Virus record (IMG/VR): IMGVR_UViG_3300026488_000006
Location: 1 to 39,192 of that record
Source of the DNA: a virus
Length of the DNA: 39,192 bases
Reading direction: 5' to 3' (one strand)
Shown in pieces: positions 1-37,296 of this stretch (position 1 is the stretch's first letter; each line of letters begins with the position of its first letter). A model generated the notes under the pieces. It had not been told where the DNA came from and ran no database searches. It was given only the letters and a program-made list of their open reading frames with translations. The translations under genes were made by a program, and so were the position numbers.

Positions 1-127
1 CTGCCGGACCGATGTTCCGGGCCTCGACCTCAAGGCGACCGGTGTTCAGCTCGACGGTAGCAGTCCAACGCCCCACATCGGGCTCAACGTTCACGTCGAG
101 AACCTCAATCTTAAACCGCCTCTTCCT
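1..127. repeat. Terminal direct repeat, copy 1 (identical to 39066-39192); circular-permutation overlap
   Basis: Read directly: nt 1-127 are identical to the last 127 nt of the window. Confidence 0.9.
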
Positions 128-137
128 TGGCATTAAA

Positions 138-1802
138 TCACCTCCTAACGACCTGTTTAAGATATGCCGTCGCCTGCGCGAGCTTCGGGCGTAGGAACGG
201 GTAAGGACCGCGGGTTATCACGACGGCCTCGCGGGCGCGAGTTAGGGCTACATACCAAACGCGCACCTCCGCCTCGAAATCCTCGCGGTCGCCCTCTTCG
301 AGCTCCGTGCGAATCCTCGGCGTGATGGTATCGTAAATTATCACCACGTCGGCCTCACGCCCCTTGGCCGAGTGAATAGTATCAATGTAGATTTCACCAG
401 CCGGCTTCTCCATCCGGCCATTAAGCCGAGCGCGCAACGCTTCGAGGGCAACCTCGGCTAAGGACTGACTACCAAGCGCCTCGGCCACCTTCTCCGGCTT
501 GAGCGGGCCGAGCGGGTCGCGGATTATCTTCTCGGCCAGTAGGTTTGATGGGTTAGCTGTGAGAACCTCGACGGCGCGGTCGAGCTTCGGGCCTTCGAGC
601 CCGGTGAGCCTAAGGTAAAAGCGCGCGTCGGAGCGGAGCGGTGGCTTCCTCTCCTTGAGCGTCTCGATGAAGTTCTCAATCCTGTCCACGAAGTCCTTCC
701 ACACCTGCATCCGGCGCGTCTTGAAGCGGTAGAACGGAACGCCCTTCTGGAGGAAGAGCTCTTCGAGGTCCTTCACCTGGCTGTTCGTGCGCGCGAGCAC
801 CATAACGGAGAAGCCCTTCCGCGCGAGGAGCAAGGCGTTGTCCGGGATACTCATAAAGTCTATGTCGCGCATCAACACCTTTCCACCCCGCACCCTCGGC
901 TGAAACTTCTTCGGGTAGCGGTTGCGGACGAAGAGCTTGACGAGGAGCTGTGAGGCGAGGAGCACTTGGGATGGTAAGCGGAAGGAGCGCTTGAGGACGA
1001 CAGTCTCGTCGGCGGGGAACTCGTGGAGCAAGAAGTCCGGAGAGGCGCCCTGGAAGCGGAAGAGCGTTTGGTCATCATCACCACTGATGATAGTAAATTC
1101 AGTGTCCACCATCCAGTTCTTAAAGACCTCCCATTGGAGCGGGCTGAAGTCCTGGAACTCATCCGCGATGAGCACCGGGCGCTCCGGGTGCACATCCGTG
1201 ACGAACGCCAGGGCGAGGATGTCATCGAAGTCTATGATTTTCTCGCGCCGTTTGAACTTGAGCCATTGCTCCGCAAGGACGCCCCACTCCTCGTTTTCAG
1301 CCATCAACTTGTCCACGACACGTCCGAGGTTTAAGAAGCGCGGGAAGTAAACGTTGACGGCGTAAGTGTAGGCGTTGAAGAACTGGTTGCCGGGCAGAGT
1401 CGTGAGCTCCTCGTTGGGGTCATAAGGGACGCCGACCTCGCGGGCGAACTTGGCCTTCCACCAGCCGACGGCCCCGGGCTTGCCGAGCGTCCGGCTGACC
1501 ACCCGGGGCGAGACAATGCGGGCAGAGCGGAGTAGGTGAAGCGCTATGCCGTGCATCGTGCCAAAGAGGCCCGCGCGGTAGCCACGCCGGAAGCCGACCC
1601 TGCCGACGAGCTCGTCAACCGCACTGTTGGTGAAGCTCATAAGGACGACTTCGCGGGGCGAGTAGGCCTTGTGCGGGAGGTCGAGGTCGTACTCTGCGAG
1701 CCACTCCGAAGCGTCGAGCCGGCCGGTTAGGTGGCCGAGTATCTGCGTGAGCGCGTAGGTCTTCCCCGTGCCCGGCGGGCCGAAGATTCGGAGGTTCACC
1801 AC
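138..1802 (-). CDS. Superfamily 1 DNA helicase, UvrD/Rep/PcrA-like
   Basis: Walker A GPPGTGKT; motif II ADEFQDF; motif III GDDDQTLFRFQGA; motif V TIHSAKGREADVV; motif VI VALTRAREAV. RBS GGAGGGGTGAT precedes the GTG start; the gene stop overlaps the RBS of the next gene across the origin. Confidence 0.85.
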   Translation of the reverse strand: MVNLRIFGPPGTGKTYALTQILGHLTGRLDASEWLAEYDLDLPHKAYSPREVVLMSFTNSAVDELVGRVGFRRGYRAGLFGTMHGIALHLLRSARIVSPRVVSRTLGKPGAVGWWKAKFAREVGVPYDPNEELTTLPGNQFFNAYTYAVNVYFPRFLNLGRVVDKLMAENEEWGVLAEQWLKFKRREKIIDFDDILALAFVTDVHPERPVLIADEFQDFSPLQWEVFKNWMVDTEFTIISGDDDQTLFRFQGASPDFLLHEFPADETVVLKRSFRLPSQVLLASQLLVKLFVRNRYPKKFQPRVRGGKVLMRDIDFMSIPDNALLLARKGFSVMVLARTNSQVKDLEELFLQKGVPFYRFKTRRMQVWKDFVDRIENFIETLKERKPPLRSDARFYLRLTGLEGPKLDRAVEVLTANPSNLLAEKIIRDPLGPLKPEKVAEALGSQSLAEVALEALRARLNGRMEKPAGEIYIDTIHSAKGREADVVIIYDTITPRIRTELEEGDREDFEAEVRVWYVALTRAREAVVITRGPYPFLRPKLAQATAYLKQVVRR

Positions 1803-1803
1803 A

Positions 1804-2757
1804 TCACCCCTCCGCGTCGTTCACGTAATCCCAGTCCCCAAAGTCGGTGCGGGTGCGCTCGATAGCCGAGAGAGCCTCATCAATCTCCGAGTGCGCCGGC
1901 TTGAGCTCGCGCTCCGTGAGCTCGACGAAGACCGCCTCTGGCACGAGGTAGTAGTACGGCCTCTTATATCCCACTCTAATCTGGCGCCTCTCGATGCCGA
2001 ACTTCCTAAGCGTCTCCGCGAGCTTCTTGATTGAAGTGATGCCCAGCATTGAGCGAGCCTTCTGACGGACGAGGCGCGCAAGGACGGCGTAGTACTTCCC
2101 GCGCTTGTCCACGTAAATCATCGCCTCGGGCACGGTCGCCTTGTCCTTCGCGCTCTCAAGGCTGATGGGCGGATAGAGGTCGTAGAGCTCTGCCATCAAC
2201 TCACCGACGCCGATGTCATCCTCGCGCACCATCACGGCTTGCTCGAAGGCGCGGGTAATCAACTGTTGAAGCTGGTCAACGCGCTCGCCGTCCTCGGTCT
2301 GATAGGTGCGCAGGATAATTGGGACATTGAAAAGCTCAAGCGTGAAAGAAGCAATCTCGCCGAGGACGGAGCGACGGTCAGAGGCGATGGATTTGACCGG
2401 GATGATAAGAGGCTCGTCCTTGCCGTAGAAGTAGATTTTAAGCTCCCGCGTCGCGCGGTTGTAGAGGATTTTATCCGCAAAGCTCAGCATCAGCGACACG
2501 GGGTCCGTCGCGACCAGCGGGCAGTTCATGATGTCACAGACTTCCGGGGCGACTTGGTTCACGCTGAGGCAGGAGAACGGCCTCGTAGCCCCCTTGGCCT
2601 CGCGGAAGAGCTCGCTCGCGAGGTCGTCCCCGGCCAGCTCGGCCACGTCGTTGTACTTCGGCTGGTACTCGTGGATGTAAGCCAGCACGAGCTCCTTCTC
2701 CTCGCCCGTGAGAGTGCCCTTTTCAAGGAGCGCCCTAATGCACGGAGGGAGGCTCAT
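1804..2757 (-). CDS. Hypothetical protein (317 aa) with a Cys cluster (CLSVNQVAPEVCDIMNCP); possible replication-associated protein
   Basis: RBS GGAGGTGAGGGT before ATG; its stop overlaps the helicase start. Function not recognisable. Confidence 0.6.
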   Translation of the reverse strand: MSLPPCIRALLEKGTLTGEEKELVLAYIHEYQPKYNDVAELAGDDLASELFREAKGATRPFSCLSVNQVAPEVCDIMNCPLVATDPVSLMLSFADKILYNRATRELKIYFYGKDEPLIIPVKSIASDRRSVLGEIASFTLELFNVPIILRTYQTEDGERVDQLQQLITRAFEQAVMVREDDIGVGELMAELYDLYPPISLESAKDKATVPEAMIYVDKRGKYYAVLARLVRQKARSMLGITSIKKLAETLRKFGIERRQIRVGYKRPYYYLVPEAVFVELTERELKPAHSEIDEALSAIERTRTDFGDWDYVNDAEG

Positions 2758-3347
2758 ACCCTCACCTCCATCACCGCCTCGTAGGCGACCTCCTCGCTAA
2801 TGAGCCCCTTATTTATAATATATAGTAGGTATCCAGCAACGTCTCTCTGCCTCAGCGGGAGCTTCACACCACGCCTCCAGAGCTCGTCGAGGAGGTAGCG
2901 CGAGGCGACCACGAAGAACACCTGTGGCTGGCGGAAGTTGTAGTTGAACGGGCCGAGGCGGAGAGTTGGGCCGAAGTGGAACTCCACGACGAGGTAACGG
3001 GCGACCGGTATCTCACCACGCTCAAGGCGGGCGTCCTTGAGCATACGCTTAAAGGCCTCAAAGGGGTCGGCGAACGGACAGGCCTTCCGGCGCTCCTCGT
3101 TGCAGTACTTCTTCAGGTGCTCCGGCTTTGCACCGAAGGGGCACGGAAAGAGCGGGGCGGTGTTCAGCATCGCCCGAATCCCGCGCTTCCTCTGTTCATA
3201 AGTATCGAAAGAGTAGTAGCCGAGGCTCCAGAGGGCCGGCTCAAGCTTTTCGTCGCCGAAGGTGTGGAAAAAGGATAAGAGGTCGTCGAGGGCCTCGGTG
3301 TCGCGGGCGGAGATGGCGTTTTTGACGCACTCCGGGAGCTCACTCAT
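2754..3347 (-). CDS. Hypothetical protein (about 197 aa) with Cys-rich segment (CPFGAKPEHLKKYCNEERRKACPF)
   Basis: Track ORF 2754..3419; start moved to the ATG at 3347, which follows RBS AAGGAGGTGG; the upstream part of the track ORF is probably untranslated. Confidence 0.55.
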   Translation of the reverse strand: MSELPECVKNAISARDTEALDDLLSFFHTFGDEKLEPALWSLGYYSFDTYEQRKRGIRAMLNTAPLFPCPFGAKPEHLKKYCNEERRKACPFADPFEAFKRMLKDARLERGEIPVARYLVVEFHFGPTLRLGPFNYNFRQPQVFFVVASRYLLDELWRRGVKLPLRQRDVAGYLLYIINKGLISEEVAYEAVMEVRV

Positions 3348-3522
3348 CGTGAGCCACCTCCTTGCGGACGACCAGCTTGTCGGCATAAACCTCGACCTTG
3401 ACGCGCTCGGTGTTGCCAATCCACCAGCGCGGGATGCTTATCCTCGGCGAGGTCCGGAACCTCTTGTCGAGGTACATTACCTTCCTTTCGAGGACAGCAG
3501 TCGGCTTCTCCATACGCACCAC
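3340..3522 (-). CDS. Small hypothetical protein (60 aa), first gene of the origin-spanning minus operon
   Basis: C-terminal codons contain the RBS of the next gene and its stop overlaps that gene's ATG (ATGAGTGA); TATA-like ATATTTAAGG lies upstream on the minus strand. Confidence 0.4.
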   Translation of the reverse strand: MVRMEKPTAVLERKVMYLDKRFRTSPRISIPRWWIGNTERVKVEVYADKLVVRKEVAHDE

Positions 3523-3708
3523 CGGGCATTAGTTAGTGCACTTCTCCTTAAATATCTTGCGAAAGCAGTTCCGTTTAACGCCGGCGGGCTTGTTAATTAG
3601 GCAAACACTTCTGTTTAACACTAGGGCAAGAGTTAGGCGCCACCGTTGCTGTGGGTCAGCCAGCCTCGACGGGCGCCGAAAATCCGGGGTAGCCAGCCAC
3701 TCTACATT

Positions 3709-4233
3709 GTCTTCACGTCATCGCAACGGGGCCCGGCGTTGCGGTGATGAAGACACATAGGTTTAAACTTGTCCGTTTTGTTACCCACTTCTGTTCCTAT
3801 GATGTGCTTATGTGGACGCCGAAAAAGGTAGGAGCGGGCTTTTTCGGTGTACAAAAGTGTTCTGAAGACAAAATCGCTTCTCACGAAGACACGTAATAAG
3901 GTGATGAAGACACAAAGGTTGACCTTATCACGGAAACAAGAGAGGGCTTTTTTGCCCATTTTAAAGGTAGGAGAATGCCGTTTCAATGTACAAAAGTGTT
4001 CTGAAGACAAAACCACTTCTCACGAAGACACGTAATTTCGGGCCCTGCTCCACTGACAGTAGTACTGCATCACCATAGGCCAGCATTACCAACGGCGGTG
4101 GCTCAACGCTTTGCTGGAAAAAATGTGCACATCTGGGGAATCAAGGTCAACCCCGTGTCTTCATCACTTTGTTACGTGTCTTCGTGAGAAGCGATTTTGT
4201 CTTCATCACCCCCATTACGTGTCTTCGTGAGAA
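3709..4233. repeat. Iteron array / putative replication origin or master regulatory region
   Basis: Two 49-bp direct repeats (3849-3897, 3988-4036); GTGATGAAGACAC at 3744-3756 and 3901-3913; inverted copies at 4155-4167, 4172-4209 and 4214-4233. At least 11 GAAGACA cores in about 525 bp, switching orientation around a 120-bp centre. Confidence 0.6.
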
Positions 4234-4335
4234 CCCAAAACAAGGGTATTTTTGGCTTATATGGTTAAACATGTGTGGTTTTACGGCGACTGTCTAAAAA
4301 CCGTAAAAAAGAAGTTAAGTCCCGGCGCTGGATGT

Positions 4336-5565
4336 CTAGAGCCACTGCCCCAACCGGTGGTTTTTGGCCACATCGCCAAGCTCCCGCTCAAACCTCCGCC
4401 TTATGATTTCGCAGTAGTCCGGATTCATCTCGATACCGACCCAACGCCTACCGAGCTTCTCCGCCACGACGAGAGTAGTCCCTGCTCCAGCAAACGGGTC
4501 GAGGACTACGCCGTCCTTCGGGCAAGCGACCTTAATTAAGAGCTCCGGGACGTCTGGCGGGAAGACCGCAAAGTGGGCGTCCTTGAACGGGCGGACGTTT
4601 ATTTGGATAACATCATTCGGGCGGACTTTGTAATCCCCCTCTCGTATCTTGCGGGCTATTCCTTCGTTGATTTCTCTAGAGCTCCTCGGATAAAGTTCGC
4701 CCTTGTTGTGAGGGCCAACTCTCCAGCGATACTTGGCTCGTTCCCGGGTCAATTCTGACGGTTCTGGTGCGACGGCTTTCCAATCAAAATAATACTTCGG
4801 CCTCTTCGTGAAGTGGAAGATGTACTCCCAGCTGTGGCTGAAGCGGTCTCTGACTGATTCGGGCATGGCGTTACCCTTCGTCGTCCTGTCTTTGTAAAAG
4901 TGCACTTTCTTTGCCCAGATTATTTTCTCCCGCAGAATCCAGCCCTCGTCGTAAACCATCTTGACGGCGAAGAGTTCAGGCACGAGAGCGAGGGACTTTT
5001 TCTTTAGTCCATCTGGCCACGCAACCTTTGGGACGTTGCTCCTCCCGTTCCACTTCGGGTCGTTGTCGTTGCCGAGACCATAACCGTGCCCACCACCAAC
5101 CCACGTGTCGTCAATGTTCACGAAGAGGCTCCCCGTCGGCTTGAGGACACGCTTGACCTCACGGAAAATCTCGACGAGGTGCTCGACAAACATCTGAGGA
5201 GTCGGCTCAAGGCCGAGCTGTCCATACCACGCCCCGCACTTCTTACAGATGAGGGCCGTCCGCTTGTTATACTTCTTTATCCGGGTCGTGCCCCTCGCTC
5301 CGACCACTTCGTCCTGCTTCCCGCGGACGTTGTTTCTGTTCTCGTGCTGAAGGCCAACTTCTTGCCCCACCCACTCGTGGTCGCAGTCCGGGTCGCCTCC
5401 AAAGACGGTGAACGTGGCGTCGCCGTAGTCCCTCTTGGCCCAATAGGGTGGAGAAGTAATTACCACATCCACGCTCTCATCAGGGAGATAGCGGAGCACT
5501 TCGAGGGCGTCTCCACAGTAGAGCCTGCCGAGCCGGGTTTCGAAGTAGGGCTCCATTCCAACCAT
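4336..5565 (-). CDS. DNA methyltransferase, beta-class amino-MTase (N6-adenine or N4-cytosine)
   Basis: Motif IV SPPYW near the N-terminus and motif I DPFAGAGTT near the C-terminus (order IV then I is the beta class). Track ORF 4336..5586; likely start is the ATG at 5565 after RBS GAGGTGGTG. Confidence 0.85.
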   Translation of the reverse strand: MVGMEPYFETRLGRLYCGDALEVLRYLPDESVDVVITSPPYWAKRDYGDATFTVFGGDPDCDHEWVGQEVGLQHENRNNVRGKQDEVVGARGTTRIKKYNKRTALICKKCGAWYGQLGLEPTPQMFVEHLVEIFREVKRVLKPTGSLFVNIDDTWVGGGHGYGLGNDNDPKWNGRSNVPKVAWPDGLKKKSLALVPELFAVKMVYDEGWILREKIIWAKKVHFYKDRTTKGNAMPESVRDRFSHSWEYIFHFTKRPKYYFDWKAVAPEPSELTRERAKYRWRVGPHNKGELYPRSSREINEGIARKIREGDYKVRPNDVIQINVRPFKDAHFAVFPPDVPELLIKVACPKDGVVLDPFAGAGTTLVVAEKLGRRWVGIEMNPDYCEIIRRRFERELGDVAKNHRLGQWL

Positions 5566-5576
5566 CCCGCACCACC

Positions 5577-6314
5577 TCACAGCCACCCCTTCTCGGCCTC
5601 AGCCTCCAGGAAGTCAAGAACCGAGCGGAGGCACTCCTTCAGCTTGGCAACCTTCGCCCGCCTCTGCTGGACCTCCTCGTCGCTCTCGCCGGCGCGCTTC
5701 AGCGTGAGCGTGTCGAGCATCAGCCTGAGGTACTTCGCGTGGGTCCTTGCCTCGTCGAGGCTGTCGCCGTGCACCTGGATGAGGGACTGTCCGTTGAACA
5801 GCACCGCGTCGGCGCCGAAGCGGTAGCCCGCGATGACCACCTCGTCCACGCCCCTGATACCGCTGTCCGGGTCGGCGAAGACCAGGAGCGCGACGGCGCG
5901 GTCGGTGCGGGTGTGTTCATCGAGCTCGACCGGCCCGTGACTACCGGTTAAGCGAAGGCGGTAGATGACTTTCCCGGGCACGGCCACGGCGACGGCCCTG
6001 TCGAGCTCGAACGCCGGGTAGCCGGCCAGCTGGAGCGCCCTGGCGAACACGCGGTTTGGCCCGAGGAGCGTCCAGCCGTACTCTGGGTCGCCCCACTCCT
6101 CGACGAGGCCGGACAGGGACCTTATGAGCTCCCCCAGCGCCTGCTTCGTGAGCGGTAGCCTGTTCTCCTGCCAAAGCGAGCGGAGCTTTTCGGCCAGCTC
6201 GGCCACGCTCTCGCTGTCGGCCACGGCGTCCGCTATGTCGTGGTAGAGCCGGACGAGCTCCGCCCTGTCGGGAATCACTATGTGGTCGAGCTCGTAGCGC
6301 GCCACCTCACGCAC
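5577..6314 (-). CDS. Hypothetical protein (245 aa) immediately upstream of and overlapping the methyltransferase
   Basis: Co-oriented, 3' end overlaps the MTase start; no convincing nuclease motif seen. Confidence 0.55.
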   Translation of the reverse strand: MREVARYELDHIVIPDRAELVRLYHDIADAVADSESVAELAEKLRSLWQENRLPLTKQALGELIRSLSGLVEEWGDPEYGWTLLGPNRVFARALQLAGYPAFELDRAVAVAVPGKVIYRLRLTGSHGPVELDEHTRTDRAVALLVFADPDSGIRGVDEVVIAGYRFGADAVLFNGQSLIQVHGDSLDEARTHAKYLRLMLDTLTLKRAGESDEEVQQRRAKVAKLKECLRSVLDFLEAEAEKGWL

Positions 6315-6405
6315 CTCCGCACCTGGCTTTTCTCTTCACGGCCCACTCTATGAGTGTAGCGCCGGCGTAAGCGAGAATCATGTCGGAGGATGGTGTCTTC
6401 ATGGC

Positions 6406-6573
6406 TCACCACACCTCCTCGACGCGGACGAGGGCGACTTGTTTGAAAGACCCGGTTTTCCCTATGAGTTCGGCCACGGTTCGGGCCTTATCGCTGTCGT
6501 CGTTGGCGCAGAGGATGCGGAGGTAGTCGCGCCCTTGGACTTCTTCGACGCCAAGGACCCAATACCGGGTCAC
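6406..6573 (-). CDS. Small hypothetical protein (55 aa)
   Basis: Not in the ORF track (<60 aa). GTG start two nt after the upstream stop; C-terminal codons GAGGAGGTGTGGTGA carry an RBS; protein-like composition. Confidence 0.35.
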   Translation of the reverse strand: MTRYWVLGVEEVQGRDYLRILCANDDSDKARTVAELIGKTGSFKQVALVRVEEVW

Positions 6574-10818: not shown

Positions 10819-11682
10819 TTATTCCTTGTGGGTGGCCTTCGCGAGGGCGTAGGCCGTCACCAACCCGGCTCCAAGGAGCGCGAGGCCGGCTAAACTATTT
10901 TTTTCCTCCGTCGTGTTGACCCCGGGGCCGGGCCCCGGCCCGGGCCCCTCTGCCGGCTTTATCTCGACAGTTATTGTATTCTGGTAGGCGAGCCGGTCAT
11001 CGACATAAACTTTCACGACTGCCTGTATCGTCCCCTTTGCGTTCTTTGGTATTTGGATGGGTAGGTTAAAGCGGGCTCCATAGGCGCCCTTTGTCGTCAC
11101 CGGGCCGGACTTCACGGTTCCAAACGGCGTGTCCATCTCGGCGAGGAACTTGTGGGTGTTGTAGTCATTCAGCACGCGGGCGTTCACAGTGACGGTTAGG
11201 GTTCCACCCGCCTTGACGGAGCTCGGCGCATTTATGCTCACGTCAACCTTTGGTAGCTGGTACTCGCCTGCCTTGACCTTTGCGCTGGCTATTAGTGTCC
11301 CGCTCGGCACGTCGGCAGGGCTGGCGAAAGCAACGATGGTAACGCCTTCCTCCGGCATCGTTATGTAGCCAACGGTCGCGATTTGGCACTTGTTTAGCTT
11401 AACGGCGCCGAGCTTTGTCCCCTTCTTGTTGCTCGCCGTGATGTAAGCATCCGGCCCTGTCCCCTTAGCGTACCAAACCTCAATGGTCACCGGGAAACTC
11501 TTCCAAATGGCCCAGTCCGGCACGCCGACGATAACCGGCACCTTCTGCCCCGGAGGTGCCGAGGCTGGCACATTGAGTATCTCTTCGGGGCACGGCTGGG
11601 GGGTCGGTTCGGGGCCGGCCTGGCTAACGTTCACCCCAAAGGACTTGGTATCAACAACGTGCCACTCCGCCATCTCCATCAC
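10819..11682 (-). CDS. Putative surface protein (about 285 aa) with C-terminal TM anchor
   Basis: N-terminus MAEWHVVDTKSFGVNV is paralogous to the N-terminus of 12185..12496; PGPGPGPG linker then hydrophobic anchor. True start is probably the third ATG (about 11673). Confidence 0.6.
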   Translation of the reverse strand: MMEMAEWHVVDTKSFGVNVSQAGPEPTPQPCPEEILNVPASAPPGQKVPVIVGVPDWAIWKSFPVTIEVWYAKGTGPDAYITASNKKGTKLGAVKLNKCQIATVGYITMPEEGVTIVAFASPADVPSGTLIASAKVKAGEYQLPKVDVSINAPSSVKAGGTLTVTVNARVLNDYNTHKFLAEMDTPFGTVKSGPVTTKGAYGARFNLPIQIPKNAKGTIQAVVKVYVDDRLAYQNTITVEIKPAEGPGPGPGPGVNTTEEKNSLAGLALLGAGLVTAYALAKATHKE

Positions 11683-13525: not shown

Positions 13526-13996
13526 TCACGGGAATGTTATTGTGACGTAGATGTCGAGCAAGATGGTGTTGTCCTTCGTTATGGCGGGGTCAATGTTCAC
13601 GTGGTTGATGAGCGTGCCGGTGGTGTAGTCGTTGCCGTCCGTGTGCTCATAGATGCCCGCCTCGGTATAGGTGTAGCCGTTCGCCTCCTCGGGCATGTAG
13701 CGGACGTAGTACTGCACCGTGTTGTTGCTGACCGTCAGCTGTCCGGTCTTGGCAGTCGAGGCGACAGGCTGGAAGAGGCCGGTGTCGCTCTCGCTGGGCG
13801 TCCCGGAGCCGGTACCGAGGACCAGCATCCAGTTTGAGGAGCCCTGGCTGTTGCCCCACGCCTGCGCCAGTAACTTCTTGAACTCCGTCGTTAGGACGTT
13901 CTTGCGCTCCACCTCGTCCAACACGGCGCCCGTGCGGGCGTCCCTTATGACGAACTTCCAAACGGCCTTGGCTGTGGCGGTTTCCCCAACCTTCAC
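13526..13996 (-). CDS. Putative structural protein (156 aa), paralog A of an adjacent pair
   Basis: RBS AAGGAGGTGAT before GTG; shares motifs with 14009..14713 (VLGTGSGTP.SD.TGLF, RYMPEE.NG.T.TE.G.YE, KD.T..D.YV.I). Confidence 0.6.
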   Translation of the reverse strand: MKVGETATAKAVWKFVIRDARTGAVLDEVERKNVLTTEFKKLLAQAWGNSQGSSNWMLVLGTGSGTPSESDTGLFQPVASTAKTGQLTVSNNTVQYYVRYMPEEANGYTYTEAGIYEHTDGNDYTTGTLINHVNIDPAITKDNTILLDIYVTITFP

Positions 13997-22721: not shown

Positions 22722-25700
22722 TCACCTCAGCTCCTTCCTCAACTCCGCAACGAACTTTTCATATATCTCGTTGAACGGCCAGGGGAATTCTGGCTCGTAG
22801 CCAAGACTCTTCAGCACCGTCGCGGGCACCACTGCGACCAAGTAGAACATCGTGGGCTCGCAAAGCCAGCCCTTCTCGTTCTCTCCGAGCTCGTCCTCAA
22901 ACTTGACCTGCACCGTGAAGTGGTTGTAGTCCGCCTTGTGGCAAATCTTTCTGTGCTTTCTGAGGAAAGCCAGCACGGCAGTACTGTAAGGCTCGCCCGC
23001 CTTAGCATTCCTCTTCAGCCATGCACGTATGAGGCTCGCAACCTTCCTATATACCTCGTGGATGCCACCCTCGACCAGAGCACCGCCCGCCTGCTCCACA
23101 GCGTATAGCGCCATCGCTTCGGCGAACGTCAGCGGGGCCCTCTTCTTCCTGTCTATGTACTCGCCGATGATGTTCTCCCCGAGCCACTTCTTGAGAAAGT
23201 CGGCATACATGCTGGCGTCCGAGTGAGTCTTGGCCTTCTCCTTAAGGTAGCGCTCAACGCCATACCACAGCATAGCTGAGAGCTCGCGCGGGTCTTCGAG
23301 GGCCCGACTGAGCCACTCCGGCACCTCGCCGAGGTACTGGTAGATGTTCTTTGGCTTCGATAGTTCTTTCCTCCGCTCGACTATCTCAGTTGCTGAAACC
23401 ACCCCACCCGAGCGCTTCTTCATCTCGACCGGGAGCTCTCGGCGCCCGACCTTTTGGTTGTACACACTTGTGGCCAACTTCGAGGCTTCGATGACGGCGC
23501 TGTCGAACGGGAGCTCGCCCTTGGCCACCATATCCGCGAGAACCCATAGGTCGCGCTCGATGTCGGGGAGCACGAAGTCGAGGTCAATGTTGCGCTTGAG
23601 TAGTCTGCGGTCGAGGCTCTTGAGTAGGCGCTCATAGGTGGCTCTAACTTCCTCTGGCACTTCCGGTGCTCTTCTTGGCTCAATCTCTTCGCTTATGGCC
23701 TCTTCTTCCGGCGTCAACTCCTTCACCTCCCTTTCGGCCCTGCGCTCGGGTTTTGCACCCAGCATTTTCTTCGCTTCCTCGACCTTCGCCTTCGGCAACG
23801 CCTTCCGCGCCTCCTTCATCACGATGGCCATCGCCCTCGGCTGGGTGAGCCTGCCTTCATAGACCTCGCGGGCGAGGCGCTCGATGAGCTCAAGCGGGGG
23901 CTCCGGCGGTCTGACATCGTGGAGCTCGAAGTAGCCTTCCCAGGTGTCGGTCAGCTTGCGCCTGATGAAGCGGAGGTCTTCCTCCTCCTGCGTCGCCATC
24001 TCGGCGACTTCTTCGAGCGGGAGCTCCGTCGCCTCGCCGTGCACCTTGACCGGGACCTCAACCTCCTCAAGCGGGGCCCCCTCTTTCTCCCCGGCAATAG
24101 TTCTCACCATGGACTCCTCCGGGATTTCGGCCTTCTGCTTCTCCTCCAGCTCGGCCTCAAGCTCCGGTAGCTCTTCCGGTGCCGGCGGTAAGTATTCCTT
24201 CGCCAGCTCGCGGACGTGGCGTGCCCATTCTTCCGGCGTCATCCCGAGGCGCCTGGCGAACTCTTCATCATTGGCCAACTGCTCGACCACTTCCTCGGCG
24301 CTGGTGGCACCGTACTGCTCCGGGTGCTCAAGGGCGTCGCGGATGTAGTCGTCAACCTGCCTCAGCAACTCGGCCCGCTCTTCCGTCTCAGTTGGCTTGA
24401 GCTTCCACCTCATAACCTCGGCTCCAGCCCTCGCGAGGAGCGCCTCCTCCTTGTTGGTCGGGAGCGTCCGGGCGTAGTGGACGAGCATATCATAGACCGT
24501 ACGGAACGGGTAGTAGTCGAGCTTCTGCCAGTCATAGTCTTCGACCTCGCTCGGGCTGATTGCGCCGAGGAGGACGAGCGTCTTGGCCACGCGCTCCGGC
24601 GTCGGCTTTAGGCCGAGGTAAAAGCCGAGCTGGGCGCGCTCTATTGAGGGCTTCGGCTTCTCCTCGCGGGCGGGCTTAGGCTCTGGCTGTGCGGACTTGG
24701 CAGTCCCCGGGACTTCTCTCGGCTTTTCCACCTTCTTCTTGCATTTTTCCACCTGTGGTGCCAGGAAGCGCTCAAAGTACGTAGTCACCAGCTCCTGTAA
24801 GTAGTTGGCTTTGACAAAGTTTAGGTGGCCGGGCTTGAGCTCGCGACGGACGACGTTGTAATACCCGCGGGCGTTGTCTGAGATGTGGCACACGCCGTTG
24901 GGGTAGTGTTTCTCGGGGTACAAAAACTCCTCACGGACGCCGAACTCGCGCTCAAGGTGGCGGGCGAAAACGTCCCTCGGAGCTGTCTTGGCGAACTCCT
25001 CGACTTGCTTCGTGAGCTCCGGCGTCACGTAGCGGACGTTGTAGTTTGGCTCATAAGACTCCGATTGTTTTGCTAATGCCTCAAGCTCAGCCTTTACTCT
25101 GTTGAGCGTCTCCCGCACGTCTTCCATCTGCTCCTTGAGCTCCTCGTCGCTCACGCGCGGGTTGCCTATCATCCTCCCAAGCACGCGCACCTTCACCTTT
25201 AGCGAGTTCTTAATGGTCGTGCTTAGCTTCCAAGGGAGCTTTTCCGGCAGGTTCTTGCGGAGCTCTTCGTATTCCTTGATTAGCTTCCTGGCCTCTTCCT
25301 CAAGCGCAAGGCGCTTTTCCGCCTCGGTGCCGGCCTTTGACTTAACGCCCAGCCCGCTCGTCAGGTAGCCGACGTATTTGCAGAAGTCCGGCATATTGGC
25401 GTCCTTCCACGTGAAGTTGGAGAGGTACTGGGCGAGGTAGAGTATCTCGCGGTCGAGCGGGTTGGCGCCGTGCCACTTGGGGATTTTTCCACGCTTTATG
25501 TCGGCACAGGCCATATCGAGCGGTATGAGCACGGCTTTGACCGGCTCGACCTTCCCGGCGTTGTAAAGCTTCCACGCCATAGCCGTGAGCGCCATGAGCT
25601 CCCTAAGCTTCTTCAGGCAGTCGTAGGGGCTCCTGCTGTCCCTACACAACTTATCGTAGTCGGTCCTCAATAGGATGAGCTTTCCGCCCGACAGGCACCA

Positions 25701-27761
25701 CCCAAGCTTTTTGCGCTCTATGAACTCACATATCTCGTCCGCCGAGACCTCCGCACCCATCCTGGCCAGCCTGCTCACCAGCCCCGGTAGCGTGTCCCAG
25801 ATTGAGAAGACCGTTGGGCTCTTGTTTAGCTTCTCGTCAATTATCTTCATTAATTCCTCGCGCCAGTCCACCTTTTTCGGACTCAGCCTCTCCAGAACTT
25901 CCTTTGTGAGCTCACGGGCGAGTGAGTGGACGCAGGGAACGTACTTACGCGGGTCTTTTCCACGACCAACCTCACAAACCCCGTCGAGCTCGATGGTCTC
26001 GCCGTTCACCCTTGCGCTCAACGTGATGTAGGCGCCGTGTAACTGCCCCAACCTCATCGTCAGCTCGAAGTCGCCCACCGCCGTCTTGACGAGCCACGTT
26101 TTTTCAGCCTGCGTGTCGCTGTTCCATTCCTTGACTGCCTTCCAGTCCAACGGGGGCTTCCCGGTCTCGTGGAGCACTACCTCGTACACCCCGTCGTAAA
26201 GCGCCTTCCGAGCATTCTTCCATACCTCGTTCCAGGGCTCCTTGAGCTCCGGCGGGTTAAGGCGGACTTCGCCGAACTTCTTTGAGAGGCCGGGAACGTT
26301 CATAGTGCGCTCGATGATTTCGAGGGCGTCGGCGATGGCGTTATCAGTCAGCTTCCTTACCCACGCCTTCCGCTTCGGCGACCAGCGGAACCCGTGCGCC
26401 TTGAGCTCGCGCCTAACCTCTGCCGGCGGGGCGCTCGTAAAGACCACCCAGAGCCTATCGTCGGCGTGGTTAGCAATGATTTTCCAGCCGTCACCCTTGG
26501 CCAACACCTGAACACCGCTTGTCGTGCCCTTGGCCTGCGCTTCTTTTTTCTCTAACTCCTCAATACGGGCCTTGAGGCGCTTTATTTTTTCACCAACACG
26601 GCGGAGCTCAAAGTCGGGGAAACCAATCCTGCCCAGCTCGTCCGGCTCCGGCCAAAAGAAGAAGTGGCCGGCCTCTGCAACTTTAAATGCGCCAATCTCT
26701 TTAAGCTTCCTCTCCTTCTCTTCGGGCGTGAGCTTCTTTGAGCGGATGATTTTGTTCGCTTCCTTCATTATCTCACGGCGCTTTTCGAGTATCGCCAACT
26801 CTTCCTTTAACCTCTCCAGTTCGCCAACGGCCTTTTTGTTCACGGCGCCCTGCTTCAGAGCTTCCTGCTCCTTCTTCAGCTCCTCTGCCAATTTATCAAG
26901 CTTCTTAAAGGCGTTCTTGATGAACTCGTCGAGCGCTGACAGCTTCCTATGTTCAGTCCGCCAGAGCTTTTCGAGCCGGTCTTGGCTCGGCATCCTCGCC
27001 GGCCCAACCACGTGGGCGCTCGGAATTCTCGCCCTCGTCGTTAAGTAGTCCTCATAAAGCTCAATGTAGCGCTTCGAAAAGTTTTGTATCAACCTCTTCG
27101 CCCGTTCGGGGCCGATGAGCGGGCAGAGCTTCTGCACCTTCTCAGCGTAGCGGTTCAGAGTGCGGAGGTAAGAGAGCTGGTCATACTCCGCGTCTTTCTC
27201 CGGGGTCCACGAATTAATAGAATACGCGCCCTTCGCCCGCTCAAACGGGAACGGTGTAACTTTGACGGGGATTATATCAGCCTTCCCGCCATAGTAACAC
27301 TCGATTTCAAGCGTCCAATTGTCCTGAATAAACGGGCCCCGTTCCCGCTTCGCCCTAACAACTGTCAAGATTTTATCAACGGGGCGCTCAAGCTCTTCTA
27401 CAAGAGAGTTCAATTGCGGGAGCTCGGATTTAAGCCTCTCAATAGCACCCTTGAGCTTCTCAACGTCTTCTGGTGTGAATTTATAGCGCCCAATGTCGGC
27501 CTCTCTCATTAAGTCGCGGTAGCGGTCAATGAGCTTATTCACGGCCACCCAGTCCCTCCACAGCCTCAAGAACTCCTCAACGCGCTCTTTCATCCCGGGC
27601 GGGAACTCCTCGCCGGCCTGTCTAATCTCATCTATATGTTCCTTGAGCCATAGGGCGCGGACGTAGTTCTTCATATCCTTTGTTCCCGAGAACCACCCGT
27701 TTTCGGCCCGGATGTCGTTAAACTCCCAGATGAGCTTTTGGACTTCATCGTACAGGTTCAC
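22722..27761 (-). CDS. Giant multidomain protein (1,679 aa) of unknown function
   Basis: Uninterrupted 5 kb ORF; GTG start at 27761 after RBS GGGGGTGGTGGC; coiled-coil-like and highly acidic/basic segments; no Walker A, no polymerase or primase motif that I could confirm. Confidence 0.7.
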   Translation of the reverse strand: MNLYDEVQKLIWEFNDIRAENGWFSGTKDMKNYVRALWLKEHIDEIRQAGEEFPPGMKERVEEFLRLWRDWVAVNKLIDRYRDLMREADIGRYKFTPEDVEKLKGAIERLKSELPQLNSLVEELERPVDKILTVVRAKRERGPFIQDNWTLEIECYYGGKADIIPVKVTPFPFERAKGAYSINSWTPEKDAEYDQLSYLRTLNRYAEKVQKLCPLIGPERAKRLIQNFSKRYIELYEDYLTTRARIPSAHVVGPARMPSQDRLEKLWRTEHRKLSALDEFIKNAFKKLDKLAEELKKEQEALKQGAVNKKAVGELERLKEELAILEKRREIMKEANKIIRSKKLTPEEKERKLKEIGAFKVAEAGHFFFWPEPDELGRIGFPDFELRRVGEKIKRLKARIEELEKKEAQAKGTTSGVQVLAKGDGWKIIANHADDRLWVVFTSAPPAEVRRELKAHGFRWSPKRKAWVRKLTDNAIADALEIIERTMNVPGLSKKFGEVRLNPPELKEPWNEVWKNARKALYDGVYEVVLHETGKPPLDWKAVKEWNSDTQAEKTWLVKTAVGDFELTMRLGQLHGAYITLSARVNGETIELDGVCEVGRGKDPRKYVPCVHSLARELTKEVLERLSPKKVDWREELMKIIDEKLNKSPTVFSIWDTLPGLVSRLARMGAEVSADEICEFIERKKLGWCLSGGKLILLRTDYDKLCRDSRSPYDCLKKLRELMALTAMAWKLYNAGKVEPVKAVLIPLDMACADIKRGKIPKWHGANPLDREILYLAQYLSNFTWKDANMPDFCKYVGYLTSGLGVKSKAGTEAEKRLALEEEARKLIKEYEELRKNLPEKLPWKLSTTIKNSLKVKVRVLGRMIGNPRVSDEELKEQMEDVRETLNRVKAELEALAKQSESYEPNYNVRYVTPELTKQVEEFAKTAPRDVFARHLEREFGVREEFLYPEKHYPNGVCHISDNARGYYNVVRRELKPGHLNFVKANYLQELVTTYFERFLAPQVEKCKKKVEKPREVPGTAKSAQPEPKPAREEKPKPSIERAQLGFYLGLKPTPERVAKTLVLLGAISPSEVEDYDWQKLDYYPFRTVYDMLVHYARTLPTNKEEALLARAGAEVMRWKLKPTETEERAELLRQVDDYIRDALEHPEQYGATSAEEVVEQLANDEEFARRLGMTPEEWARHVRELAKEYLPPAPEELPELEAELEEKQKAEIPEESMVRTIAGEKEGAPLEEVEVPVKVHGEATELPLEEVAEMATQEEEDLRFIRRKLTDTWEGYFELHDVRPPEPPLELIERLAREVYEGRLTQPRAMAIVMKEARKALPKAKVEEAKKMLGAKPERRAEREVKELTPEEEAISEEIEPRRAPEVPEEVRATYERLLKSLDRRLLKRNIDLDFVLPDIERDLWVLADMVAKGELPFDSAVIEASKLATSVYNQKVGRRELPVEMKKRSGGVVSATEIVERRKELSKPKNIYQYLGEVPEWLSRALEDPRELSAMLWYGVERYLKEKAKTHSDASMYADFLKKWLGENIIGEYIDRKKRAPLTFAEAMALYAVEQAGGALVEGGIHEVYRKVASLIRAWLKRNAKAGEPYSTAVLAFLRKHRKICHKADYNHFTVQVKFEDELGENEKGWLCEPTMFYLVAVVPATVLKSLGYEPEFPWPFNEIYEKFVAELRKELR

Positions 27762-28428: not shown

Positions 28429-28527
28429 TCCCACCACCCCGATGATGTTTTGTTTAAACGAGTATATAAAGGATTCCCCGGCCGAGCTCGGGAGCGAGCC
28501 GGAGCGATTACTACTGCCCGACGTGCC

Positions 28528-29688: not shown

Positions 29689-29747
29689 CCTTCTTTTTTT
29701 CGCCCGCTTTATAACCCGGTTATAATTTCTCACAACCGGGTTTTGCC
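29689..29747 (+). terminator. Terminator-like element: oligo-T plus palindrome TTATAACCCGGTTATAA and AACCGGGTTTTGCC
   Basis: T9 run immediately after the operon's last stop; about 80 percent identical to 30326-30382. Confidence 0.45.
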
Positions 29748-29886
29748 TGGGGGGCTACATATATACTACATATAATTCCACGCCCCAAGTTTCACCACGA
29801 TAACTTAGTTTTAGCAGTTGATAACTCGGTTATGTCGCGTGAGTTTCTGACGCGACTCCGAGGCGCTCTCAGACGCGAGAACTTTG

Positions 29887-30325: not shown

Positions 30326-30382
30326 CTTCTTTTTTCGCCCGCCTTATAACTCGGTTATAGCTTTTCTTAACTCGGTTTTGCC
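30326..30382 (+). terminator. Terminator-like element, second copy: oligo-T plus palindrome TTATAACTCGGTTATAG and AACTCGGTTTTGCC
   Basis: Immediately after the stop of 29970..30323; homologous to 29689-29747. Confidence 0.45.
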
Positions 30383-36320: not shown

Positions 36321-37130
36321 TCACACATTCGAAATCACCTCAGTAAGGCTTTTCTGACGGGAGTTTTGGAACCCATCTAATAACCGAACCCAATGGAGTA
36401 CTCTCTGTCGTATCTGCATCCAGATAGGCTTAGAGTTCTTCACGCGGTCAATACCATACCTATATGCCAAACTGTCCGCCGAGTAAAGAGCTTCTCTCAC
36501 GTCAGGATACCTGAGCACTCCAAACTTTACTCCAAAAGCGTGCAACTTAACCCTCCTTGGTGTCGCTTCTCTTATTGCGAGTATGTATCTCCGTATTTGC
36601 GGTTCTTGCCCGCGCCGGCACATTGTGCCGAGGCCGAGAAGTTCAGTCAGGAGACCATGCTCCTTCATATAATCGAGCATCCAGAGATAGTCGTCAAGCG
36701 CCCACCCCTGCAATACTGCCACAAAGTGCTTCTTAAGTTCAGGATACTGGTCGTCAATTAGATTCTGAATTACAATCTGGTTTTCTATCGTTTTCATCTG
36801 ATTTTCTCGAACCGTGCGACCCCACTTCTTGCGGACTTCCGGTTCGCACGGATAATCCCTATTCGCAAAGAGGACATTCTCAAAGCGTCCAGAATTGAGC
36901 TGACGAAGGACAAACTCAAGGTAGCGCTCGTGTGGGTCCGGGTATTCTTGCATGCGGTAAAAAAAGCTGAAGCCTCCGCTGTCAATGAACAACCAGCTTG
37001 TGTTCCTAGGTGGGGTTCTAACTCTGGAAGCATAGTTAATCATAACATTGAACTTGCGCGGAGCGAGGCTTTCAAATGCCTTTTTTGCTGAACCATCCCC
37101 CACACCAAAAAAGAAACTAAACACGGCCAT
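36321..37130 (-). CDS. TGT-family transglycosylase, DpdA-like (7-deazaguanine DNA transglycosylase candidate)
   Basis: Motif WLFIDSGGFSFF matches the tRNA-guanine transglycosylase active-site motif (E. coli Tgt ILTDSGGFQVF); downstream blocks align loosely with TGT (VAVLQG, LLGLGTM, YSADSL); no CxCxxC...H zinc site. Track ORF 36321..37271 starts at a TTG; ATG at 37130 follows RBS AGGAAGGAGCGTG. Confidence 0.7.
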   Translation of the reverse strand: MAVFSFFFGVGDGSAKKAFESLAPRKFNVMINYASRVRTPPRNTSWLFIDSGGFSFFYRMQEYPDPHERYLEFVLRQLNSGRFENVLFANRDYPCEPEVRKKWGRTVRENQMKTIENQIVIQNLIDDQYPELKKHFVAVLQGWALDDYLWMLDYMKEHGLLTELLGLGTMCRRGQEPQIRRYILAIREATPRRVKLHAFGVKFGVLRYPDVREALYSADSLAYRYGIDRVKNSKPIWMQIRQRVLHWVRLLDGFQNSRQKSLTEVISNV

Positions 37131-37296
37131 CACGCTCCTTCCTAAGTGTTGCAATAAAGCACTCGTCGAAAAACTCACAAGCTTCACAGAGCGAGTCGCC
37201 CTGAAAGTCTCCAAAGCAAGGCGGTAGTTCCTCAGCGCCCTCATTGTCGAATTCGCCCCAAACCTCTCCAAAAACCGTTATGAGAACCTTAGCCAC
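37117..37296 (-). CDS. Small Cys-rich protein (59 aa), possible metal-binding
   Basis: Not in the ORF track. GTG start after RBS GGGGGTGACGGGGC, directly after the upstream stop; C-x11-C-x2-C-x5-C; overlaps the dpdA-like start by 14 nt in another frame. Confidence 0.35.
   Translation of the reverse strand: MAKVLITVFGEVWGEFDNEGAEELPPCFGDFQGDSLCEACEFFDECFIATLRKERDGRV

Follow-up and report, generated by a model that had tools for sequence, protein, structure and literature searches.

In the pTN2/pEXT9a plasmids of Thermococcales, the closest systems described, the predicted origin is the largest intergenic region, which precedes an operon encoding a replication protein and a helicase (PMC2926602; Krupovic et al. 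2013, PMC3543421). PolpTN2 has been characterised as a primase-polymerase and harbours a PriL-like Fe-S domain (PMC3973330). In pTN2, pAMT7 and pMETVU01, this intergenic region carries short, plasmid-specific repeats in two inverted arrays, with a spacer of ~40–110 bp between them. The locus described here lies in a window of 39,192 nucleotides (the whole stretch of DNA analysed) and shares both features with these plasmids, namely the order of largest intergenic region, small protein, replication protein and helicase, and the two inverted, replicon-specific repeat arrays around a short spacer. It departs from them in that the repeats recur with a 21–22 bp period and have unique DNA between their cores, whereas the plasmid arrays are contiguous 9-bp tandem units, in that two small paralogous four-cysteine proteins (197 and 317 aa) take the place of a single replication protein, and in that the host replicon is a 39-kb, probably viral element.

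The 39-kb element is circular and represents an archaeal virus or plasmid, probably a virus. The same 39,065-bp circle was also assembled in an ENA contig, and a JGI contig carries the repeat-region sequence at 100% identity, hence an assembly artefact does not explain the repeats. The source samples are those behind ERZ27262635 and JGI 3300026382, and IMG/VR lists a related contig. The gene-free gap that contains the repeats extends over 822 bp between the methyltransferase stop (4336) and the ATG of the 57-aa protein p57 (3513). It is by far the largest gene-free stretch in the genome, in line with the preliminary description (which gave a length of 810 bp); all others are 321 bp or shorter. 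No genes were called inside it by the gene caller, including a 104-aa ORF (3702..4016) that we do not consider a real gene. Translated similarity from gap to gap was found in every frame and on both strands, indicating conservation of the DNA rather than of a gene. The gap had no matches in Rfam or, by BLAST, in the phage and plasmid collections, and no tRNA-like sequence was found. Scans of viral contigs with the exact motif, and in a first peptide scan, gave no match; genome contigs scanned with a profile of the 197-aa protein (p197) yielded no relative, and the conserved promoter segment, used to scan metagenomes, retrieved only the two types that were already known. Features of the gap and of the operon are collected in Table 1.

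Table 1. Coordinates of sequence features in the gene-free gap and the adjacent operon (window numbering; a dot marks features without strand)
Feature	Position	Strand	Description
AT-rich segment	4238..4317	.	34% GC, the lowest of any 80 bp in the gap; flanks the distal array on its outer side
Distal iteron array (far from operon)	4155..4233	-	four minus-strand GAAGACA at 4156, 4177, 4198 and 4220; spacing 21/21/22 bp
Spacer between facing arrays	4037..4154	.	118 bp, 54% GC
Proximal array, block B1	3998..4036	+	GAAGACA cores at 4003 and 4024; inside second copy of the 74-nt duplication
Proximal array, block B2	3859..3913	+	three GAAGACA cores at 3864, 3885 and 3906; 21-bp spacing
74-nt direct duplication, first copy	3824..3897	+	second copy 3963-4036, 88% identity
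Conserved non-iteron block CACCGAAAAAGCCCGCTCCT	3830..3849	-	partial second copy 3940-3952
Promoter-side palindrome	3706..3757	.	cores 3708-3714 (-) and 3749-3755 (+), GC-rich centre
Two GTTAAAC boxes	3613-3619 and 3573-3579	-	separated by 40 bp; immediately precede the operon promoter
TATA-like element AAGATATTTAAGG	3547..3559	-	starts 46 nt upstream of the p57 ATG; found by eye
p57	3340..3513	-	57 aa, first operon gene
p197	2754..3347	-	p317 paralog with N-terminal four-cysteine domain
p317	1804..2757	-	PriL-like four-cysteine replication protein
SF1 (UvrD/PcrA-like) helicase	138..1802	-	last operon gene

The repeats previously noted in this gap are all present: two 49-bp direct repeats (3849-3897 and 3988-4036, matching at 47 of 49 positions), two copies of GTGATGAAGACAC (3744-3756 and 3901-3913) and inverted copies at 4155-4233. 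Their longest inverted pair covers 51 nt at 96% identity (3863-3913 against 4155-4205). Common to the repeats is a 7-bp core, GAAGACA, which occurs 16 times in the window against 5.2 ± 2.5 copies expected from shuffles, with 11 of the 16 confined to 3708-4226. At the density seen outside the gap, 0.11 copies would be expected within it (Poisson P ~2e-16, a post hoc value as the core was picked from the gap itself). Core starts are phased by 21–22 bp within the blocks. The proximal side of the spacer has two blocks with five forward sites between them, facing four inverted sites on the distal side, and two further sites form a palindrome on the operon side. A 74-nt duplication has doubled part of the proximal array; it is specific to the window element, and the proximal array of its relatives is single. 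We also considered GAAGAC as a BbsI restriction site linked to the neighbouring methyltransferase, and dropped this idea because the hexamer is not avoided elsewhere (34 copies outside the region, ~28 expected genome-wide).

Five related metagenomic elements (L004, L008, L009, L010 and L013) have the same layout in a gap of 700–820 bp upstream of the equivalent operon, which encodes the 57-aa, 197-aa and ~317-aa proteins followed by the SF1 helicase. Orthologs of p317 or p197 in these elements range from 81% to ~50% identity. Each element has an equivalent of the distal array (3–6 sites), a spacer (innermost sites 69–150 bp apart), a proximal array in the opposite orientation and, ~104–123 bp beyond it, one or more additional sites. 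Phased copies of one asymmetric site, part of the general definition of an iteron origin, are present in the window and in all five relatives. The array block always lies upstream of this same operon, regardless of the gene on the other side of the gap. In contrast to the layout, the 7-bp cores are element-specific with almost no cross-occurrence: GAAGACA in the window, TGGGCAA in L004, and TAAGTAA, TGGRYAA and TGGGAKA (two elements) in the others. In places the core alone has been replaced within conserved flanks, for example CCAAAATTACGTTGCCCAGTTTTAATG in L004 versus CCAAAATTACGTTACTTAGTTTTAATG in L008.

The window and L004 come from overlapping samples and are 97–99% identical genome-wide, yet their repeat regions have no similarity beyond two short islands. 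Divergence in the operon is confined to p197 residues 141–197 and p317 residues 1–85, 184–204 and 244–284. The C-terminal 57 residues of p197 are 67% identical between the two elements, compared to 96% for its N-terminal part, and the variable segments of p317, which change along with the iterons, are 62–67% identical. The helicase is 99% identical and p57 is 100% identical, which excludes p57 as the specificity partner of the iterons. The pair is a natural specificity swap, in which the cores co-vary with p197 and p317 and not with p57 or the helicase.

This comparison bears on the possibility of a host-dependent origin of the archaeal chromosomal type, with ORB-like boxes bound by host Orc1/Cdc6 around an unwinding element. 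The inverted arrays around a spacer of ~120 bp do resemble inverted ORB elements, and archaeal chromosomal origins likewise have oppositely oriented asymmetric sites across a spacer. Here, however, the core is wholly different between near-isogenic genomes, so that one host protein cannot be its reader; in addition, the scan of ORFs revealed no gene for Orc1/Cdc6 or MCM, the spacer lacks AT-richness, and the sites, with a 7-bp core and ~13–20 bp in all, are short and regularly phased. We regard this explanation as highly improbable, and host Orc1/Cdc6, suggested earlier as a binder, is an unlikely one. Of the other binders suggested, the products of 1804..2757 (p317) and 2754..3347 (p197) appear to be the right candidates, while the giant protein encoded by the element gained no support.

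p317 and its paralog p197 are also related to plasmid replication proteins. The p317 family aligned with plasmid Rep proteins in hhalign (probability 96.5%, E 7.7e-10), a match that is significant only when the 16-sequence family alignment is set against a 7-plasmid Rep alignment; earlier runs with shallow alignments were not significant. The aligned span links p317 residues 2–301 with pAMT7 Rep residues 258–603, i.e. the PriL-like and C-terminal region, making p317 homologous to that part of Rep. Of the four conserved cysteines, three are invariant in 16 of 16 family members, and the first is missing only in the two members that lack the N-terminus. NCBIfam gave a weak PriL match for p317 (E 0.0027), with no significant family for p57, p197 or p317 in Pfam, PHROGs and NCBIfam. 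Fold searches returned no significant match, and a profile search of PDB sequences gave no match for p317 and only noise for p57. A by-eye guess that p57 is an AbrB/SpoVT-type protein was not supported by any tool. In pAMT7, the Rep segment aligning to p317 residues ~212–280 also exists as a separate 85-aa gene beside the intergenic region (E 8e-16), fitting an autonomous DNA-binding module. We consider p317 the best candidate for an iteron-binding initiator, and p197 a candidate co-determinant of iteron specificity.

The closest annotated relatives of the window helicase are the homologous SF1 helicases of pTN2/pEXT9a-type plasmids (pAMT7, pMETVU01, pIRI33, pEXT9a, pTN2 and pP12-1; tblastn 29–31% identity over 95% of its length, E 3e-63 to 1e-43). 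The p197 and p317 genes are translationally coupled to the helicase gene through overlapping starts and stops, and the operon with p317 and the helicase lies directly downstream of the gap in the window and in all relatives. No N-terminal PriS-like prim-pol domain, a feature of the pTN2 subfamily only, was found in the scanned ORFs, p317 beginning at its PriL-like domain, and the element yielded no match to a catalytic primase or polymerase. Replication proteins of the pEXT9a type are also without a PriS-like prim-pol domain (PMC3543421). Their N-terminal part of ~250 aa is missing here.

The content of the operon also helps to judge two further functions for phased repeats. A partition centromere of the parC/ParR type, where a small adaptor on the repeats links DNA to a segregation NTPase, would account for two phased-repeat blocks upstream of an operon that starts with a small protein, as in R1 parC. 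We think this very unlikely, given that no ParA, ParM or TubZ-like NTPase was found in the operon or the scanned ORFs, that p57 is identical in elements with differing cores, and that the downstream genes are homologs of replication proteins. A further candidate is a recombination or packaging site, at which an integrase would bind attP-like arms or a small terminase would bind a pac sequence: direct and inverted sites around a core segment also fit lambda attP or SPP1 pac, but no integrase/recombinase or terminase was detected among the scanned ORFs, tRNA-like sequence is absent, and the array layout goes with the replication cassette and is seen again in pTN2-family plasmids, which are not viral. 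We rate its likelihood as minimal.

In the wider comparison, the arrays resemble bacterial iteron origins (pPS10, pSC101, F, R6K, P1 and the lambda O/ori system) in having multiple asymmetric sites phased at about two helical turns, with a palindromic copy nearer the promoter of the initiator gene. Initiator and iterons are known to change together between close replicons, as in lambda, 434, phi80 and 82. Unlike in these bacterial origins, the candidate initiator is PriL-like, a putative Fe-S protein, and unrelated to winged-helix Rep proteins or lambda O, there are two facing blocks rather than one direct block beside an AT-rich region with DnaA boxes, and the setting is an archaeal host with an SF1 helicase instead of a DnaB-type hexamer. 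A second resemblance is to the replicons of phage P4, SaPI and PLE. In P4, a single octamer is repeated in both orientations. In all three, two sets of short iterons flank a central segment, and the specificity of the initiator varies from element to element around a conserved motor part (PLE: PMC8263062). There, however, the initiator is the helicase itself (an SF3/SF4 enzyme that binds DNA through a C-terminal domain) and the iterons enclose an AT-rich segment, whereas here the helicase is a separate, invariant SF1 enzyme and the variable parts reside in PriL-like proteins.

Besides the arrays, several elements of the gap are shared among relatives. The palindrome cores are 41 bp apart start to start, and an equivalent '< >' pair at 37–41 bp is present in L004, L008 and L009, and thus in four of the six elements. 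Its predicted hairpin (-15.6 kcal/mol, z-score -4.95) has a counterpart in L004 (-18.9 kcal/mol, z-score -6.1), and we consider the palindrome a candidate dimer-binding or autoregulatory site. The CACCGAAAAAGCCCGCTCCT block is unchanged in L004, has a single mismatch over 20 positions in L008 and can be recognised in L009, despite the differing cores of these elements; in the window it is part of a hairpin with a 9-bp stem (DNA fold -9.4 kcal/mol, z-score -3.9). The GTTAAAC boxes are kept in elements with different iterons, which makes them a candidate site for a conserved factor, e.g. p57. The TATA-like element is conserved in the relatives and is the probable operon promoter.

The central segment is, as first described, flanked by direct and inverted sites (118 bp, against 120 bp given earlier), but its comparison to an unwinding element is not supported. 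It is GC-richer than the gap as a whole (54% vs 47.6%), its duplex stability is above the gap mean, and no significant single-strand structure was predicted (fold z-score +0.98). It does contain a TGTGCACATTTTTTC motif related to the TGYACA..TTC motif of the relatives. There is hence no obvious unwinding element where archaeal or SV40-type models place one. If the gap is an origin, the AT-rich segment beyond the distal array would be the sole candidate for unwinding.

Cumulative GC skew, to which the preliminary description had looked for a minimum, has no inflection at the locus, only a broad shoulder, and after detrending its minimum (28,440) and maximum (20,696) lie elsewhere. The locus differs in this from the pTN2/pEXT9a plasmids, whose origins are themselves predictions. 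The minimum coincides with a switch to divergent transcription, and since skew in this genome tracks gene orientation we give it little weight. The two most AT-rich 80-bp stretches of the genome, at 28,534 and 29,880, are likewise outside the gap.

Such observations would fit arrays that serve control alone, as operators or copy-control (handcuffing) sites by which a regulator of the p317/p197 type governs the replication operon, with replication starting elsewhere, e.g. at 28.4–30.4 kb. The arrays would then resemble P1 incA or the P4 crr region. In addition to the skew minimum and the AT-richest windows, the 28–30 kb region has divergent transcription and near-palindromic repeats of its own (ATAACYCGGTTWT). 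The lack of AT-richness in the spacer points the same way, and phased, co-varying sites fit a pure repressor-operator system equally well. Co-variation of site and protein is also a hallmark of the heteroimmune repressor-operator cassettes of lambdoid phages. Against control alone, the co-varying proteins are homologs of plasmid replication proteins and not of known repressors, their genes are translationally coupled to the helicase gene, and the main arrays are located 360–715 bp upstream of the ATG, far from the promoter. Furthermore, the small plasmids of the superfamily have analogous arrays in what is essentially their sole large intergenic region. We treat a control-only function as rather unlikely.

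On balance, we favour as probable that the gap serves as an iteron-type origin and controls replication, with p317 and/or p197, and not host Orc1/Cdc6, recognising its sites. Supporting this reading are the layout kept in five relatives, the sites that change with p197 and p317, and the pTN2/pEXT9a cassette, to which both p317 and the helicase are homologous. The earlier proposal of an origin or master operator tied to the helicase operon is partly supported by these same observations, and finds no backing in the GC skew or in a central unwinding element. Most likely, we are looking at a familiar origin design in which the recognition word has been swapped between near-identical relatives. We infer physical binding, the protein or domain that reads the core, the place of melting and the start of replication at this locus.

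We postulate that the repeats at 3708-4233 are asymmetric sites for an element-encoded protein, with the 7-bp GAAGACA as specificity core, and that a spacing of two helical turns would present all sites on one face of the DNA. The PriL-like p317, probably together with its paralog p197, would bind the phased sites cooperatively, and binding may wrap or distort the DNA and open it, with the spacer and the AT-rich flank as the two alternative places of opening. The complex would then recruit the co-encoded SF1 helicase as well as a primase and polymerase, probably those of the host. The palindromic pair and the GTTAAAC boxes would probably feed back on expression of the operon.

A more specific version of this origin is conceivable, and we judge it improbable. 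The four-cysteine PriL-like p317 and p197 would themselves be the sequence-specific origin recognisers, an Fe-S primase-regulatory domain having turned into an exchangeable DNA-reading module. The cores, which occupy opposite strands on the two sides of the spacer, would be read, possibly in single-stranded form, as priming sites, and host PriS and the element's own SF1 helicase would be steered to bidirectional synthesis without Orc1/Cdc6 or MCM.

To our knowledge, almost all origins of archaeal viruses and plasmids are computational predictions, and we know of no DNA-recognition mechanism for initiators of the pTN2 superfamily. The window and L004 provide a natural experiment, with near-identical genomes, site arrays that share no recognisable similarity, and protein differences limited to several short stretches in the two small PriL-like proteins, which renders the pairing of site and protein directly testable. 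The system could yield a compact replicon of programmable specificity for hyperthermophile genetics. If the Fe-S PriL-like domain reads sequence, this would be a new role for that fold; if it does not, the locus would be an ordinary iteron origin in a new archaeal element. Should these proteins prove to be the recognisers, their reading segments would be exchanged along with the iterons, giving rise to mutually compatible replicons in one host population.

Every repeat listed in the preliminary description, which proposed an iteron-bearing replication origin in the gap upstream of the SF1 helicase operon, was found in the window, and all share a 7-bp core, GAAGACA. The window has 16 copies of this word where 5.2 are expected, and 11 of them lie at 3708-4226. 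Following the operon's direction, a distal array is followed by a spacer, an inverted proximal array that was doubled by a 74-nt duplication, and a promoter-side pair forming a palindrome capable of hairpin folding; core starts are 21-22 bp apart inside each array. An independent JGI contig has the identical sequence. The gap itself, between the methyltransferase stop and the p57 start codon, measures 822 bp and is the largest gene-free stretch of the genome, and since translated similarity between gaps shows up in every frame of either strand, nothing in it is coding.

Coordinates of the operon, the repeat region and other features of the window
Feature	Position	Strand or orientation	Remarks
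N6/N4 DNA methyltransferase	4336-5586		other border of the gap; stop at 4336
p57	3513..3340	minus	operon gene 1, 57 aa, ATG at 3513; whole protein 100% identical to L004
p197	3347..2754	minus	operon gene 2, 197 aa; aa 141-197, 67% identical to L004
p317	2757..1804	minus	operon gene 3, 317 aa; identity to L004: aa 1-85, 62%; aa 184-204, 67%; aa 244-284, 66%
SF1 UvrD-like helicase	1802..138	minus	operon gene 4
Distal array	4220 to 4156	one orientation	four sites
Spacer			118 bp, between distal and proximal arrays
Proximal array	4024, 4003 and 3906, 3885, 3864	opposite orientation	two plus three sites
Promoter-side pair	3749 and 3708	opposed	41 bp apart, ~115 bp past proximal array
Second repeat family	29711-29745, 29800-29834, 30346-30380		unrelated to the arrays
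1679-aa ORF	22722-27761	minus	no Pfam match at all
Tail-fibre-like match	13526-13996		PF12571 (phage tail-fibre N-terminal), weak, E 3e-4
DpdA-like protein	36321-37271	minus	queuine/archaeosine tRNA-ribosyltransferase-like; Pfam PF23859, E 2e-20

The ends of the window (1-127 and 39066-39192) are identical over 127 bases owing to assembler overlap, and the true molecule is either a circle of 39,065 bp or a circularly permuted genome; the same length and the same circle follow from an ENA contig (39,206 bp, k=141). Minus-strand genes run from ~28.6 kb down to 138. Like the 1679-aa ORF, most other ORFs of the element are orphans, and the tail-fibre match is the sole virion-like hint. The DpdA-like protein is also present in related contigs (L004 9991-10794, L012 3446-4237), and this conservation suggests 7-deazaguanine modification of the element's DNA.

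Searches with p317 retrieved four relatives (81, 71, 61 and 51% identity) and those with p197 further ones, all metagenomic contigs (L004-L014) carrying the same operon; IMG/VR also lists a related contig. In every relative with upstream DNA a gene-free gap of 700-820 bp precedes the operon, while the gene upstream of it varies. In each of these gaps a distal array with 3-6 sites is followed by a spacer (69-150 bp between innermost sites) and then by an inverted proximal array, past which at least one extra site lies at ~104-123 bp; phasing is 21-22 bp in all arrays. The core, GAAGACA in the window, is TGGGCAA in L004, TAAGTAA in L008, TGGRYAA in L009 and TGGGAKA in L010 and L013. There is almost no cross-occurrence of cores between elements, and each is strongly enriched in its own gap by a post hoc statistic. 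At several places the core alone is replaced inside conserved flanks (L004 CCAAAATTACGTTGCCCAGTTTTAATG versus L008 CCAAAATTACGTTACTTAGTTTTAATG), and four kinds of non-iteron island, namely CACCGAAAAAGCCCKCTCCT, two GTTAAAC boxes beside the promoter, a TATA-like element and a TGYACA..TTC motif, are kept across elements with different cores. Contigs L011, L012 and L014 terminate within or just beside the repeat-bearing gap, consistent with assembly-graph breaks at a region varying between co-occurring strains.

Over most of their length, window and L004 share 97-99% identity, and their helicase proteins are 99% identical, yet BLAST found no similarity across the repeat region (3585-4337) except two short islands. 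The methyltransferase gene is also replaced (a 416-aa N6/N4 enzyme versus a 276-aa one, L004 2650-3480). Within the operon, divergence is limited to segments of p197 and p317 (see table), the remainder being 96-100% identical. Since divergence is so confined, what varies together with the sites is p317 and/or p197 rather than p57, the helicase or a host protein, which speaks against host Orc1/Cdc6, earlier suggested as a binder. Three rival readings, namely an origin served by host Orc1/Cdc6, a centromere, and an attP or pac site, all lack a defining feature, and even taken together we regard them as improbable. Across elements, swapped or inserted methyltransferase genes surround the replication module: in L008 a C5 methylase (10960-11586) separates the p317 and helicase genes, and L011 has two methylases there (1649-3868).

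No above-threshold match to p57, p197 or p317 was found in Pfam, PHROGs or NCBIfam. The p317 family is very small, with 15 cluster representatives in a set of 1.84 billion proteins. Three cysteines and Arg266 are invariant when 16 sequences are aligned, and the first cysteine, which belongs to an LPPC motif near the N-terminus, is missing solely in two members without an N-terminus. The closest annotated relatives of the helicase are SF1 helicases of the Thermococcales plasmids pAMT7, pEXT9a, pIRI33, pTN2 and pP12-1 and of pMETVU01 (Methanocaldococcus). We extracted the replication proteins of these plasmids for profile comparison, in which p317 family aa 2-301 aligned with pAMT7 Rep aa 258-603 (probability 96.5%, E 7.7e-10). 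This part of Rep comprises a PriL-like four-cysteine Fe-S domain, described for the biochemically characterised primase-polymerase PolpTN2 (PMC3973330), and a C-terminal part common to pEXT9a-type proteins (PMC3543421). A weak match of p317 aa 3-56 to NCBIfam PriL (E 0.0027) agrees with the profile alignment, and p197 and p317 are paralogs (E 1.6e-9). The p317 structure model was mediocre (pLDDT 67), with only sub-threshold matches, including winged-helix and PriL Fe-S domains. In pAMT7, the gene at 6196-6453, which comes first after the large intergenic region, encodes an 85-aa paralog of aa 497-580 in that plasmid's Rep (35% identity, E 8e-16), a part aligning with p317 aa ~212-280. Its occurrence as a separate gene suggests that this segment is an autonomous DNA-binding module, and the 85-aa protein may act by itself in DNA binding or copy control. 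In some relatives (L011 735-1652; proteins P0014, P0024 and P0027) p317 is encoded by a split gene, or its C-terminal half alone occurs as a separate 115-165-aa protein; L011 has a 139-aa and then a 165-aa ORF. P0009, a p197 homolog, carries 85 additional aa at its C-terminus.

Origins of these plasmids were predicted, from GC skew and repeats 'reminiscent of iterons', to lie in the largest intergenic region, ahead of the replication-protein and helicase operon, and neither report describes their experimental mapping (PMC2926602, PMC3543421). On direct inspection, the pTN2 intergenic region has approximately eight GTGGCTRAA units, ~90-108 bp, then approximately five inverted TTTGACCAC units; in pAMT7 and pMETVU01 the facing arrays consist of CCCCA/TGGGG-type units, pMETVU01 also having CTACCTTT-type units. 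The window therefore shares with pTN2-type plasmids a design in which two arrays of short, replicon-specific repeats face each other before a replication cassette, although the repeat period is 21-22 bp in the window and 9 bp in the plasmids.

We favour, with some reserve, an iteron-type origin and replication-control region that would be read by PriL-like p317 and/or p197. The helicase operon would supply this origin with machinery linked in cis, and feedback probably acts through the promoter-side palindrome and the GTTAAAC boxes. Anatomy, conservation, co-variation and homologies were observed directly; binding, melting and initiation at the arrays are what we infer. Our reserve reflects three observations that leave some room, if not much, for a control region only, with the origin elsewhere. 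First, GC skew, put forward as a check on the origin, has no inflection at the locus, its detrended minimum lying at 28,440, where transcription diverges. Second, the spacer, once likened to an unwinding element, is GC-richer than its surroundings, and the sole AT-rich stretch of the gap (4238-4317, 34% GC) is not enclosed by the arrays but lies beyond them. Lastly, the 80-bp windows richest in AT genome-wide (28,534 and 29,880) adjoin the second repeat family. The 35-nt unit of that family, in short gaps of a plus-strand gene block, has two ATAACYCGGTTWT near-palindromes ~22 bp apart; the family also adjoins the divergent-transcription switch (28632/28797) and the skew minimum, and could represent classical operators or an alternative origin region.

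Iterons before a replication cassette, specifically in the pTN2-superfamily layout, are a known kind of feature. What appear to be new are this family of elements, the split PriL-like protein pair without a prim-pol, the two-turn phasing of sites and, most notably, how cleanly near-isogenic genomes have naturally swapped site core and protein segments. The more novel, and testable, possibility is that the sequence might be read by a PriL-like Fe-S domain.
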